Source: a virus (lineage: Duplodnaviria; Caudoviricetes). Taken from it: 64,000 nucleotides of DNA. Below, piece after piece: positions 8,471 to 11,714 of the stretch (position 1 is its first letter; the number at the start of each line of letters is the position of its first letter). The position numbers and the translations under genes were made by a program. The DNA lies in the IMG/VR virus record IMGVR_UViG_3300035208_002098, positions 160,001 to 224,000 of that record; one strand, written 5' to 3'. The notes below the pieces were generated by a model that was not told where the DNA came from, did not search any database, and saw nothing but the letters and a program-made list of their open reading frames with translations.

Positions 8471-9904
8471 TTATATCGTTACTTTTGAGTAACGTTCTGA
8501 GTTAACAACCTCTAACATCATTGATATTGGAGTAAGGTCTTTACCAGCCAATAACGATGTTAATAAACTTGGACTAAAACCAGATACTAACGCTGTATTT
8601 TGTTTATCAAATCTAACTGGTGAATCACTATTATGAGCGTTTAAATTCCAGAATACTACTTTTGGTATTTTATACCCAGCTTTAGTGTATTGAGCTTCAA
8701 TCATTTGTTGTGCAGTTGGATTCCATGAATCACTACCACATCTATCAAATTGCATATCCGAAAATATAACAATCATAGTTGGCATTTCAAGTTCTGGTAC
8801 ATTATATGTAACCGCTTTATTTAAAAGCATTTTAAATGCTGCTTCTAAGTTGGTATTCATATCCCATTGAGCTCTATGTAATTGTGCATATCTTTCAGAT
8901 AAAGTACCTTTAAGTACTTGTATCTCAGGACGAGCTGAAAATGTCATAAAAGCATCTTTAAAAGCACCTTCATTTCTTTCAGAAATATATAACCCTAAAG
9001 AAATACATACATCCAAACAACTTACATTAGGGTTTTGTCCAGCTGGACAATCCATTGACCCCGATACATCACACATAGGCATTAATCTTTCAGTATTACC
9101 AATCATATAGTTTGGTAATGCATTCCATTGTGCGTTTGCACCTTGAGCAACACCATTTTTCATTGATTTAACAACGTCATATGGGTATACAGCACCAGCA
9201 TTTATTTTAGTTTCACCTTTATCAAGTGCATCCATATATGCTTGGAATCTAATTGAGTCATTTTTACTAAATGCTTTCATATAATCTGCCATAGCTCTTG
9301 ATGGTAATTTACTATATTCAATAACTTCCCAGTTTTTAGCACACATAGCTTGTTCAACTGTGTTAGATAACTCAGATAACATTTTTCTATACTCTTTTGG
9401 AGTTAATTTTAAATGTTTTCTAACTAATTCAGCTTGAGCTTTTTTATCTCTACTGTTTACTGATGGTCTTGGCATCCATTTAGCACATAAACCATTTTTG
9501 TTAGCTAGACCAGTTGCTATTGTTTCCAACGCAGCACTTTCAAGTCCAGTACCAAGTAATGATAATACATCATCCCATCTACCAAATTCAGAAATTAATT
9601 GAATATTTTTAGCGATTGATGCTTTATGGTTTTTAGCCATATAAGATACGATATCTCTGAAAATTTGTCTTTCTCCAGCACCACCACGAATATCACGAGC
9701 CCAAAATAATAATTTCATAGCTACCAACGGATTTTCACCATATGCTTTAGTGAATGAATTAATAAGTCTAGTTTTATCTTGACCTCTCATTGCACCAATT
9801 TGGAAAAATAAATCAACACAATTATTCAACGATGTTGAGTTTGTTGTCATACCATTTTCTGTTAATACGTCTTCAGTACGTAAAGCATCTACTAATTTAG
9901 TCAT
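8471..9904 (-). CDS. DUF2828-family helical + vWA protein (Ro60/TROVE-like architecture)
   Basis: TENG, LFWARDIRGGAGER, GRWDD, AKWMPR, MIDAS motif CDVSGSM, IFSDMQFD, VFWNL, VSGFSP. Confidence 0.88.
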   Translation of the reverse strand: MTKLVDALRTEDVLTENGMTTNSTSLNNCVDLFFQIGAMRGQDKTRLINSFTKAYGENPLVAMKLLFWARDIRGGAGERQIFRDIVSYMAKNHKASIAKNIQLISEFGRWDDVLSLLGTGLESAALETIATGLANKNGLCAKWMPRPSVNSRDKKAQAELVRKHLKLTPKEYRKMLSELSNTVEQAMCAKNWEVIEYSKLPSRAMADYMKAFSKNDSIRFQAYMDALDKGETKINAGAVYPYDVVKSMKNGVAQGANAQWNALPNYMIGNTERLMPMCDVSGSMDCPAGQNPNVSCLDVCISLGLYISERNEGAFKDAFMTFSARPEIQVLKGTLSERYAQLHRAQWDMNTNLEAAFKMLLNKAVTYNVPELEMPTMIVIFSDMQFDRCGSDSWNPTAQQMIEAQYTKAGYKIPKVVFWNLNAHNSDSPVRFDKQNTALVSGFSPSLLTSLLAGKDLTPISMMLEVVNSERYSKVTI

Positions 9905-10013: not shown

Positions 10014-10639
10014 TTAAATGAAATTTCTTACAAATAATTTTCTATGTGCTTGTATTAAACCAACCTCTTTTATAGATTTAATATGGGCTGCGGTACCATA
10101 ACCCTTGTTTGAAAAAAAATCATATTGTGGGTGAATTTCATGTAATCGTTTCATATAATTATCTCTTTCTACCTTAGCAAGAATTGCTGCTGCTGCTATA
10201 CAAGTGTATGTATTATCACCTTTAGCTACACATGTGTGTTCAATTCCTTTGTAAGGAGAAAATACGATACCATCAACTAATATATGTTTAATATCTTGGT
10301 TTTTAGTGATTATTAGGTCATCCAGACATTTATGCATAGCTATAAATGTTGCTTCGTTTATATTATATTTATCAATTAATTTAACTGAGGATGCTTGAAC
10401 AGAATAAGCTATTGCGTTTTTTATTATGATTTCATACGCTTCATCACGTTGTTTTTCTGATAATGTTTTAGAATCTCTAATTAATTTATGATTAAAATCA
10501 TTAGGTAGGATAACAGCACCTGTAACAACAGGTCCGGCTAAACAACCTCTACTAATTAGCCCACCTCGTCTATACCAACTATAAAATCTAGTTCGGATAG
10601 GCAAGGTGGACAATGTGTTAATAATTTATTATTCTTCAT
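10014..10639 (-). CDS. rnhB: Ribonuclease HII with discontinuous reading frame (pseudogene or recoded)
   Basis: Body RGCLAGPVV..DSKTL..LVDG..KGD..IAAAAILAKVERD..NKGYGT at 10550..10014. Catalytic N-terminus IVGIDEVG is in another frame (10639..10556), separated by 8 extra nt. Confidence 0.85.
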
Positions 10640-11576
10640 TTATGTAACTCTTAATAAAATTTTTACAAATATTTATATTTTCTTCGATTGGTGTATCAGA
10701 CCATATTGTCAATGTTGTGAAACCAAATTCCCTCGCTAATTTATTTTTAAATTTATCATTTTCAATAGCATCAAAATAATTAATCTTTTTAAATGGGTGT
10801 ACCCAATTTTCCTTTATTCTATCAGACCAAGATTCATTAACATGAAATTTAACACCATTAAATTCTATAATTATATTTAGTTTTTTAATTGTAAAATCAT
10901 AAAGATACGTTTTACCGTCTTTAACAATAAAAAACTCTCTACTATTATTATCACCATAGTAAATATCGTTAATATCAACGTAATTAATCAACCAATCTAC
11001 CAATGGTTTAAAAACCAATAACGATTGTTTTGATGCCTTACCAATATGTTTCTTGAAATTTTTATACTTAATCTTACCTTCAATTTCACCATATTTTGTA
11101 ATAAAAAATGTTAAATTCCTAGCACAAGTACGTTTATAATTATCATACTTAAACTTACCTTCATTTTCACCATATCGTTTAATGTATTTTTCTAATGTAT
11201 GACCACAATTATTAGATATATTATCATTTTTTTTATTATACATTAAAAGTCCGTCAATTTCACCATACATATTAATATACCATTCTTTATTTCGTATTAT
11301 TCGTTTATATGCAGCTGTTTTTTCATTCCACCCACGTTTAATCCAATACGATAATTCTTGCTTACGATATATCCTTTCTAAGTTAAATATATTTTCGGAA
11401 ATGTATTTAATAGTTCGTTTTTTAGAATATTCGTTATGGTTATTTATTGTTAACAAATACTTATATATTAATTCATCTAAAAATTTAGGTTCAAAATCAT
11501 CACCATATCGTTCAATTACCCAACATTTAACCATATTTTCAGTGGGTGGTGTAGTAATTCTACTTGTTTTTTTCAT
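10629..11576 (-). CDS. Free-standing homing-endonuclease-like protein, C-terminal Vsr/PD-(D/E)xK domain
   Basis: Repeated KYGExEG units, YDFTIKKLNIIIEFNGVKFH...DKFKNKLA...IW; inserted at the rnhB active-site codons. Confidence 0.8.
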   Translation of the reverse strand: MKKTSRITTPPTENMVKCWVIERYGDDFEPKFLDELIYKYLLTINNHNEYSKKRTIKYISENIFNLERIYRKQELSYWIKRGWNEKTAAYKRIIRNKEWYINMYGEIDGLLMYNKKNDNISNNCGHTLEKYIKRYGENEGKFKYDNYKRTCARNLTFFITKYGEIEGKIKYKNFKKHIGKASKQSLLVFKPLVDWLINYVDINDIYYGDNNSREFFIVKDGKTYLYDFTIKKLNIIIEFNGVKFHVNESWSDRIKENWVHPFKKINYFDAIENDKFKNKLAREFGFTTLTIWSDTPIEENINICKNFIKSYINEE

Positions 11577-11579
11577 GTT

Positions 11580-11614
11580 CTTTTTATTATAAATATGATA
11601 TTTATAATAAAAAG
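11580..11614. repeat. Perfect 17-bp inverted repeat over the endonuclease translation start region
   Basis: CTTTTTATTATAAATAT-G-ATATTTATAATAAAAAG; contains ATATTTATA on both strands. Confidence 0.9.
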
Positions 11615-11619
11615 TTCAT

Positions 11620-11685
11620 CTAAACCATTAAAACTTCATCGAGGCCGACTTCTAATACACCTATATTTTTATATTCTTTTAACAT
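11620..11685 (-). pseudogene. Stranded original 5' end of rnhB (MLKEYKNIGVLEVGLDEVLMV*)
   Basis: Carries the RNase HII motif VGLDEV; preceded by a TACCTTTG -7 box. Confidence 0.8.
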
Positions 11686-11714
11686 AGGGCAAAGGTAATC
11701 AAAAAATTTTAGAA

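Follow-up and report, generated by a model that had tools for sequence, protein, structure and literature searches.

A 64,000-nucleotide (nt) stretch of a virus genome (Duplodnaviria; Caudoviricetes; IMG/VR record IMGVR_UViG_3300035208_002098, positions 160,001 to 224,000; hereafter the window, whose coordinates are used throughout) carries on its minus strand an rnhB gene, encoding RNase HII, that is interrupted by a homing endonuclease gene and by a short stop-led gap within its DEVGRG motif. With moderate confidence, on the basis of comparison with related loci, we propose that ribosomes cross this gap by a short programmed stop-hop, and that the gap also shields the target site of the endonuclease, as with MobA and gene 60 of bacteriophage T4. 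This junction would then belong to a natural family of hairpin-driven, 6-8-nt hops over UAA, created and spread as a target shield by a Vsr-like homing endonuclease, a wider proposal that we consider somewhat probable.

An earlier note on this DNA, made from its letters alone, had described a broken rnhB with two alternative N-termini, and each of its sequence statements was reproduced at the given minus-strand coordinates when the sequence and its open reading frames (ORFs) were re-read. The original start (ATG 11685, reading MLKEYKNIGVLEVGLDEV) is cut off by an endonuclease gene after GAA GTT (11637-11632), with a stop at 11622-11620. A second start (ATG 10639), overlapping the 3′ end of the endonuclease ORF, reads ..IVGIDEVG, with the last Gly codon GGC at 10561-10559 and TAA at 10558-10556. 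Removal of the palindrome CTAATTAG (10559-10552) restores DEVGRG. The body of the enzyme resumes as AGA GGT TGT at 10550, remains open to 10014 and matches the Pfam family RNase_HII (PF01351) at 3.5e-28, in keeping with the view that it looks undecayed. Folding also reproduced the hairpin of approximately 20 pairs (10611-10559) that had been placed directly before the stop. What escaped that description is that the whole locus is a mobile cassette, with the stop-led gap as its right end. Among the five readings offered for the junction, the comparative evidence favours ribosomal bypass, with take-off at GGC and an imperfect landing at AGT.

The 8 nt do not stem from an assembly error, which was ruled out by three independent metagenome assemblies that carry them. 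Contigs from these three separate studies (one of a landfill, one of groundwater and one further metagenome) span the stretch without an insertion or deletion; two are identical and the third differs by 14 substitutions and no gaps.

Junction variants and the conserved hairpin

Related loci in phage contigs show two kinds of right end. The seamless kind (L007-L013, L015/16, L023, L027 and L030) joins the substitute N-terminus to the body without a gap; here the motif reads DECGRG, the Val codon has become TGT, and no hairpin is present. The interrupted kind, found at nine loci, contains an extra Gly codon, TAA, 0-2 nt, a Gly or AGY codon and then Arg. Counted from the first Gly codon to the one that precedes Arg, the displacement is 8 nt in the window (GGC TAA TT AGT AGA), L031 (GGT TAA TT AGT CGA), L032/33 (GGT TAA TT AGC CGA) and L017 (GGT TAA TT GGA AGA). 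It is 7 nt in L014 (GGT TAA T GGT CGT), L020 (GGC TAA T GGC CGT), L025 (GGC TAA T GGT AGA) and L028 (GGC TAA T GGA AGG), and 6 nt in L022 (GGT TAA GGA CGT). Relative to the start, each of the three frames is therefore used by the body at some locus.

Certain features of the junction are constant across these frames. TAA stands directly 3′ of the proposed take-off Gly codon in 9/9 interrupted loci; in the window it opens the gap TAA TT at 10554..10558, followed by the proposed imperfect landing codon AGT (10551..10553), which occupies the position of the native Gly codon. The landing position holds GGN in six other loci and AGT or AGC in L031 and L032. Take-off and landing codons match or wobble-match in L014, L020 and L025, are GGY and GGA in L017, L022 and L028, and are GGY and AGY, with two of three positions matching, in the window, L031 and L032. 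Only one single decoding would yield DE(V/M/A)GRG at every interrupted locus: peptidyl-tRNA-Gly would leave the first Gly codon and land on the codon that precedes Arg.

The same junctions could instead be read by a programmed frameshift or readthrough that leaves a small insertion: -1 in the window (DEVG-LIS-RG), +1 at the 7-nt loci (DEVG-N-GRG) and readthrough in L022. In 3/3 members of the window clade the gap spells Leu-Ile-Ser in the frame of the body, and its two variable positions are synonymous, as such a shift would predict. Likewise, a stop after the shift site together with a close upstream Shine-Dalgarno (SD)-like GAGGUG is an arrangement that we take to resemble the +1 site of prfB. 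However, homologous cassettes would need three different mechanisms, and the junctions contain neither a slippery heptamer nor a shift codon of the prfB type. One to three residues would also be placed between DEVG and RG, in a motif (DEVGRG) that is invariant in 113/120 of the best homologues, and the Gly or AGY codon that always precedes Arg would be left without a reason. We regard this explanation as improbable.

The interrupted form is distinguished by a hairpin directly 5′ of the gap. In the window it occupies 10559..10611 on the minus strand, its 3′ arm being formed by the D-E-V-G codons and ending on the take-off codon. The folding energy is -31.3 kcal/mol (z -2.8) for the 121-nt context and -25.6 kcal/mol (z -5.2) for the 56-nt segment from arm to arm. 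A hairpin is present in 9/9 interrupted loci (-21 to -32 kcal/mol, z -3.9 to -9.0), whereas the same segment lacks it in 7/7 seamless and 2/2 native loci (-1 to -12 kcal/mol, z +1.4 to -1.6). RNAalifold independently predicted the same helix. In the hairpin alignment 94% of cells are paired, and 0/500 shuffles reached either the pairing value or the covariation score; sliding the partners against each other lowered pairing to 32-53%. Compensatory changes occur at two pairs of helix 1, one being GC four times, AU four times and GU once, and the other changing from AU to GC in L022. The third base of the Asp codon also co-varies with the 5′ arm (GAC with CGT, GAT with CAT), and an Arg to His change in the substitute N-terminus is thereby predicted to keep the hairpin pair.

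Constraint on this segment is also visible in its codons. GAG GTG GGC is a run of three consecutive rare codons (12.6%, 6.4% and 2.7% of the usage of their families in the phage), and the sequence has therefore been selected at the nucleotide level. In the 7-nt clade, synonymous sites are more conserved in the substitute N-terminus than in the body (p 0.001-0.006). A PPxL sequence conserved 15 codons before take-off, where a nascent-peptide signal might be sought, is dictated by the hairpin arm. The 3′ arm further contains the SD-like GAGGUG, 7-8 nt before the landing codon.

A model for the proposed stop-hop can be drawn from these elements. A ribosome that began at the start of the 27-residue N-terminus would stall with its peptidyl-tRNA-Gly paired to GGC while UAA occupied the A site, where decoding would be slow. 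At this point the upper part of the hairpin, at least 13 nt upstream, could already form outside the ribosome. As the hairpin re-formed behind the ribosome, its 11-bp lower helix would zip and draw the message forward by several bases, which is near the 6-8 nt skipped. The tRNA would then re-pair 8 nt downstream on AGU (2/3 positions) or, in most relatives, on a full Gly codon mostly 6-7 nt downstream, and decoding would restart at AGA to give the canonical DEVGRG. The extra bases are probably there to split the endonuclease's own target at the exact point of insertion, and so to protect the carrier.

Three simpler ways around the stop were dropped. Transcriptional slippage finds no homopolymer run, reassignment of TAA is at odds with TAA ending 85% of long ORFs, and reinitiation at the ATG within TAATG would be in the wrong frame.

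Cassette structure, mobility and the homing endonuclease

The closest intact relative (L034/P0093) has a body 88% identical to that of the window, carries no endonuclease, and starts MLKEYKNIGVLEVGIDEVGRG in one frame. The first start of the window is therefore the native N-terminus, since this relative, which lacks a homing endonuclease gene (HEG), has the same N-terminus in frame. The empty site of L034 reads GAA GTT GGT AGA (L034-type site sequence, GATGAAGTTGGTAGAGG), and the cassette has entered DEVGRG precisely at the boundary of its GTT (Val) and GGT (Gly) codons. In the window, four components are inserted here: a 55-nt leader (11577..11631), the endonuclease gene (315 amino acids; 10629..11576), a foreign N-terminus of 27 codons (MKNNKLLTHCPPCLSELDFIVGIDEVG; 10559..10639, its last codon GGC being the proposed take-off) and TAA TT, all on the minus strand. 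The native Gly codon GGT reads AGT. Upstream is left a relic of the native 5′ end (11620..11685), consisting of 18 codons, 3 junk codons and TAG. The foreign N-terminus has in-frame homologues in the seamless relatives, and all endonuclease-bearing loci except one decayed locus (L026) retain a relic of their own native N-terminus. Judged by these comparisons, the locus is a homing cassette that carries a substitute 5′ end for the rnhB it interrupts, with the native 5′ end stranded upstream.

Mobility of the cassette is apparent from pairs of related sequences. L007 and L008 are perfectly identical over 1,078 nt that begin in the last relic codons (GAAGTT), take in leader, endonuclease and substitute N-terminus and end at GGTAGAGGTTG, with flanks of only 57% and 70% identity; synonymous divergence (dS) is 0 for the HEG versus 1.5 for the body. 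In the strain variant of the window that differs by 14 substitutions, 13 fall in the body and 0 in the cassette, and 9/13 of the body changes are synonymous. On this sequence evidence the cassette is clearly mobile, endonuclease, substitute 5′ end and gap travelling together into one site of diverged genomes.

The insertion point itself differs between the empty site and the seamless alleles, in which GTT has become TGT. Intact rnhB alleles were also seen in which the Arg of GRG is replaced; L021, which has an upstream endonuclease, reads DEVGWG, and proteins P0160 and P0185 give DEVGLG and DEVGIG. Replacement of this Arg may be a third way to spoil the target site.

Close homologues of the endonuclease (60-70% identity) were found in many phage contigs, always just upstream of rnhB. 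Searched against Pfam at default thresholds, the endonuclease matched no family; DUF559 was matched weakly, below the cut-off, in 13/22 members of the endonuclease family, and a sequence search of the PDB with the family profile gave a chance match only. An AlphaFold2 (AF2) model (pLDDT 79) was compared by Foldseek, which returned 3r3p (probability 1.00, TM 0.6 by target) and 1vsr (probability 0.99), with E-values of 0.015-0.06. Within the family E238 is invariant, and H245 nearly so, in an E-x-N-G-x-x-F-H stretch. The C-terminal domain is accordingly modelled as a Vsr/I-Bth0305I-like fold. The catalytic domain fold, with a conserved E and H, is thus shared with I-Bth0305I of the EDxHD group and with Vsr (3r3p and 1vsr). 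I-Bth0305I comes from a group I intron within a recA gene, whereas the window enzyme is free-standing and has a different helical N-terminal region with repeated YGE..G..KY units. The endonuclease tree is star-like, and the order in which seamless and interrupted forms arose could not be read from it. A second, distant copy of the Vsr-like domain was noticed outside the window but in the same phage (L002; G000:C1:242454-242690; 37% identity over 88 residues), within an open frame of 289 amino acids.

An endonuclease lodged inside a gene is also what is seen in phage group I introns, and a U precedes the left junction. We therefore considered removal at the RNA level, either by a group I intron joining the relic to the body or by a micro-intron of a new kind excising the 6-8 nt. 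The non-coding sequence amounts to 55 nt on the left and none on the right, bearing out the statement that the flanks are too small for a group I core, and not one Rfam family was matched at E = 1 in 3 kb; extending the scan of the 3 kb to E up to 10 returned four chance matches to unrelated families and no intron. Seamless relatives need no splicing, which together with the Rfam result leads us to reject a group I intron; for the micro-intron, no bacterial mechanism is known to remove 6-8 nt. Joining of the upstream piece can be rejected, as this piece is the relic of the native N-terminus, fused in frame in the HEG-less relative, and L031 and L032 have the gap but neither the upstream piece nor an endonuclease. 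RNA-level removal is in our estimation very improbable.

The leader was aligned across 12 loci, and RNAalifold found no consensus structure in this alignment. Two elements are conserved in it on the minus strand: a leader box, GGTTTAGATGAACTTTT, at 11626-11610, and an ATATTTA box at 11596-11590, 5′ of the endonuclease start. In the leaders of the window, L007, L010, L014, L025, L028 and L021, the box GGTTTAGATGAAC-TTTT has the look of a second, older version of the target site's left half. ATATTTA is invariant in the window and its relatives, 8-20 nt before the endonuclease start codon. In most relatives it was seen by eye to form the loop sequence between the arms of a co-varying inverted repeat of 5-7 bp (TTCGTT/AACGAA, ATTTGT/ACAAAT, CTGTG/CACAG). 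Repeat and box together recall the T4 late promoter and the hairpin control of endonuclease translation.

Two further loci show the cassette in other states. L026 (1501-3200) is decayed, with the endonuclease cut to 298 amino acids, no substitute N-terminus and an RNase HII fragment of 141 amino acids. In L031 (339-431), a 30-codon ORF occupies the position of the endonuclease; its stop overlaps the substitute start and a leader-like box is found upstream of it. A deleted endonuclease gene may have left this ORF behind.

Coding integrity of the interrupted gene

The RNase HII body of the window (10014..10550, minus strand) begins with the Arg of GRG and comprises 178 codons and a stop. The bodies inspected retain LVDG and KGD, and the intact relative could be aligned with solved structures of RNase HII. 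The catalytic D-E pair is encoded in the substitute N-terminus, in a different frame from the body. Every interrupted locus that is fully covered retains a full-length body (176-178 codons; six different bodies); the contigs of L020 and L022 end inside the open frame, and that of L017 ends at the junction. The substitute N-terminus is likewise an open frame with GxDExG, and all its insertions and deletions are multiples of 3.

Purifying selection on the body was estimated from the ratio of nonsynonymous to synonymous divergence (dN/dS). This was 0.056 between the window and L031 (dS 1.22), 0.126 between the window and L032 (dS 1.16), and 0.061 between L025 and L028 (dS 0.85, with an HEG dS of 0.78). 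L025 and L028 have the same relic junction, and this, together with the parallel divergence of HEG and body, indicates that the interruption was probably present throughout their divergence. On terminal branches the ratio of synonymous to nonsynonymous changes was 22:7 for the window, 25:7 for L031 and 20:7 for the intact L034. L031 and L032/L033 have lost both endonuclease and relic, yet they keep the substitute N-terminus, the hairpin, the gap and an intact body.

These data bear most directly on the possibility that the gene is dead: the stop-led gap would inactivate rnhB, the selfish cassette would spread by homing, the phage RNase HII would be dispensable, and each arrival would be recent. 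The cassette is clearly and recently mobile, close relatives carry intact and interrupted alleles in interleaved order, the stop stands in a strong context, and the L026 locus is fully decaying, all of which such a view would accommodate. Set against this are the full-length bodies at all fully covered interrupted loci, with catalytic motifs kept in those inspected, and the divergence of HEG and body in parallel between L025 and L028 at a body dN/dS of 0.06. L031 and L032 have moreover had time to lose the endonuclease, and their bodies are still intact. A dead gene would also give no reason for an open N-terminus, the D-E pair, a Gly codon before Arg or a hairpin kept by compensation. Recent pseudogenisation of this particular phage's gene, one of the readings raised by the earlier note, is conceivable but fits poorly with conservation across the family. 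Overall we judge a dead gene unlikely, albeit a serious alternative.

A functional product might instead consist of two pieces, with the 27-residue peptide complementing a separately started body, or of a truncated body that lacks D-E and is non-catalytic. Phage genes split by endonucleases can work, as in Aeh1 nrdA and T4 genes 39/60 (cited in 10.1101/2022.08.31.505936). Read from the DNA, however, the body frame of L031 and L032 has a TGA a few codons 5′ of the junction and no ATG, GTG or TTG after it, and because the TGA closes the frame and no start codon follows, the body could not be made alone. A 27-residue fragment with one strand and two catalytic carboxylates is also implausible as a subunit. 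A split enzyme, which had been among the readings first offered, is accordingly a most doubtful explanation.

Several points weigh against the stop-hop. UAA followed by U is the usual stop context of the phage and is an efficient terminator in Escherichia coli, and much translation should therefore end at the UAA. The 3-5-nt gap leaves no room for an A-site stem-loop to exclude release factors, unlike gene 60, and given this lack of A-site structure the efficiency of hopping may be low. In the window clade the landing codon is AGY and not Gly, and as changes in the gap are synonymous when read as Leu-Ile-Ser, a -1 shift fits this clade equally well. When the alleles are ordered by similarity of the body, interrupted ones are intermixed with intact ones. 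The relic in the window still resembles a recently functional coding piece; the cassette may have arrived recently in this phage, in which case the intact body would say little here. Finally, the loci compared are few and phylogenetically related.

Phage context and related systems

The virus record of which the window is a part measures 248 kb and has 27% GC. It contains a single RNase HII match, which is this rnhB. It also carries 48 tRNA genes, all outside the window, including tRNA-Gly genes with anticodons GCC, ACC and UCC. Among tRNAs in the record, the ACC anticodon of tRNA-Gly is unusual, and a suppressor tRNA gene with a CUA anticodon was also noted. ARAGORN called a tmRNA gene on the minus strand of the window at 2504-2870 (genome 162504-162870), with tag peptide EAYNQEPTLKLFQVVNLGSIA. 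A TAccTTTG box (11690..11697, minus strand) lies 5′ of the native start, and the same box precedes the native or relic start in L014, L025, L010 and L034. We take it to resemble the Bacteroidota -7 promoter motif TAnnTTTG; if this identity holds, a Bacteroidota host is indicated by the boxes that precede the native start of rnhB. The gene that follows rnhB (8471-9904, minus strand) encodes a DUF2828/DUF7788 protein and is its conserved neighbour in almost every related contig; the annotation given to this protein in Felixounavirus phages is RNA-binding or vWFA.

Wider searches returned few further examples. In phage GenBank, blastn matched only the adjoining DUF2828 gene. Searching IMG/VR with the body found one HEG-less intact relative. 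Three junction patterns were also searched there; two had no match, and the third matched one contig, L035, from the same sample as L028 and equal to it in length. Among the sequencing runs listed as containing the stretch, none was an RNA run. In prokaryote genomes a loose junction pattern gave 22 matches, 0/22 of which were followed by an RNase HII-like frame, all being chance matches.

The closest known parallel is T4 gene 60, which with its homologues in topoisomerase genes is the one element known to show programmed bypassing in phages. Its 50-nt gap protects the target from MobA (Huang 1988 and Bonocora 2011, as cited in 10.1101/2022.08.31.505936), and Manning and Atkins (10.1101/2022.08.31.505936) regard its cassette as unique and as restricted to genes for topoisomerases. 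Pairing of the exiting mRNA has been proposed as the driver of its bypass, with a mini-SD 6 nt before the landing codon (Wills et al., 10.1101/2024.12.09.627546). In both systems a homing endonuclease and a stop-led non-coding insert form one cassette in a conserved enzyme gene, the insert lies at the target of the endonuclease, and the gap is kept after endonuclease loss. Both also have a take-off Gly codon followed by a stop, a 5′ stem-loop and a Gly landing codon (in most rnhB members), and the rnhB loci have an SD-like GAG(GUG) 7-8 nt before that codon. The systems nevertheless differ in scale and descent. T4 has 47 nt between the two codons, versus 3-5 nt in rnhB, hence the missing A-site stem-loop. 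Its hairpin lies 9 nt upstream of take-off, whereas that of rnhB abuts the take-off codon. A topoisomerase gene and an HNH nuclease in T4 stand against rnhB and a Vsr-like nuclease, with no sequence homology between them. Moreover, rnhB is not split into two working proteins but has had its 5′ end replaced.

Synthetic stop-hops provide a second comparison. In E. coli constructs, matched codons flanking a stop allowed 9 nt to specify one amino acid (Weiss et al. 1987, as described in Atkins et al. 2016, PMC5009743), and the same review of recoding stated that natural in-frame stop-hops were not known. The L022 junction, GGT TAA GGA, has exactly this form. The synthetic hops occurred at a low level in constructs without stimulators, whereas rnhB has a conserved hairpin. 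The displacement in rnhB also varies (6, 7 or 8 nt), and the landing codon of the window is imperfect.

Two other arrangements share the logic of a gene repaired by the element that breaks it. Phages and islands integrated in tRNA genes carry a replacement end of the target gene, through site-specific recombination at tRNA gene 3′ ends. There too insertion breaks the gene and the element supplies the displaced end; the rnhB cassette differs in that it homes through a double-strand break into the 5′ part of a protein gene. In Aeh1 nrdA/MobE (cited in 10.1101/2022.08.31.505936), a free-standing endonuclease likewise sits in a conserved gene without an intron or intein, and sequence added by the cassette rescues host function. 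There, two halves assemble as proteins, whereas the rnhB cassette brings a full substitute 5′ end and the old one is discarded. In the literature, no paper was found that unites rnhB, a homing endonuclease and bypassing.

If correct, the proposed reading would make rnhB the first natural stop-hop, and the second, independent pairing of a homing endonuclease with translational bypassing. The locus and its relatives would represent a far simpler, independently evolved system, built from one hairpin, a Gly codon with a stop after it, 0-2 further bases and a landing codon. Its nine natural junction variants read almost as a designed mutant series, and would allow a direct test of whether pairing of the exiting mRNA can drive the ribosome forward. 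The model would further account for the ability of homing endonucleases to settle in the best-conserved segment of an enzyme gene with neither an intron nor an intein. For annotation there is a warning too, as "truncated" phage genes beside endonucleases may be whole.

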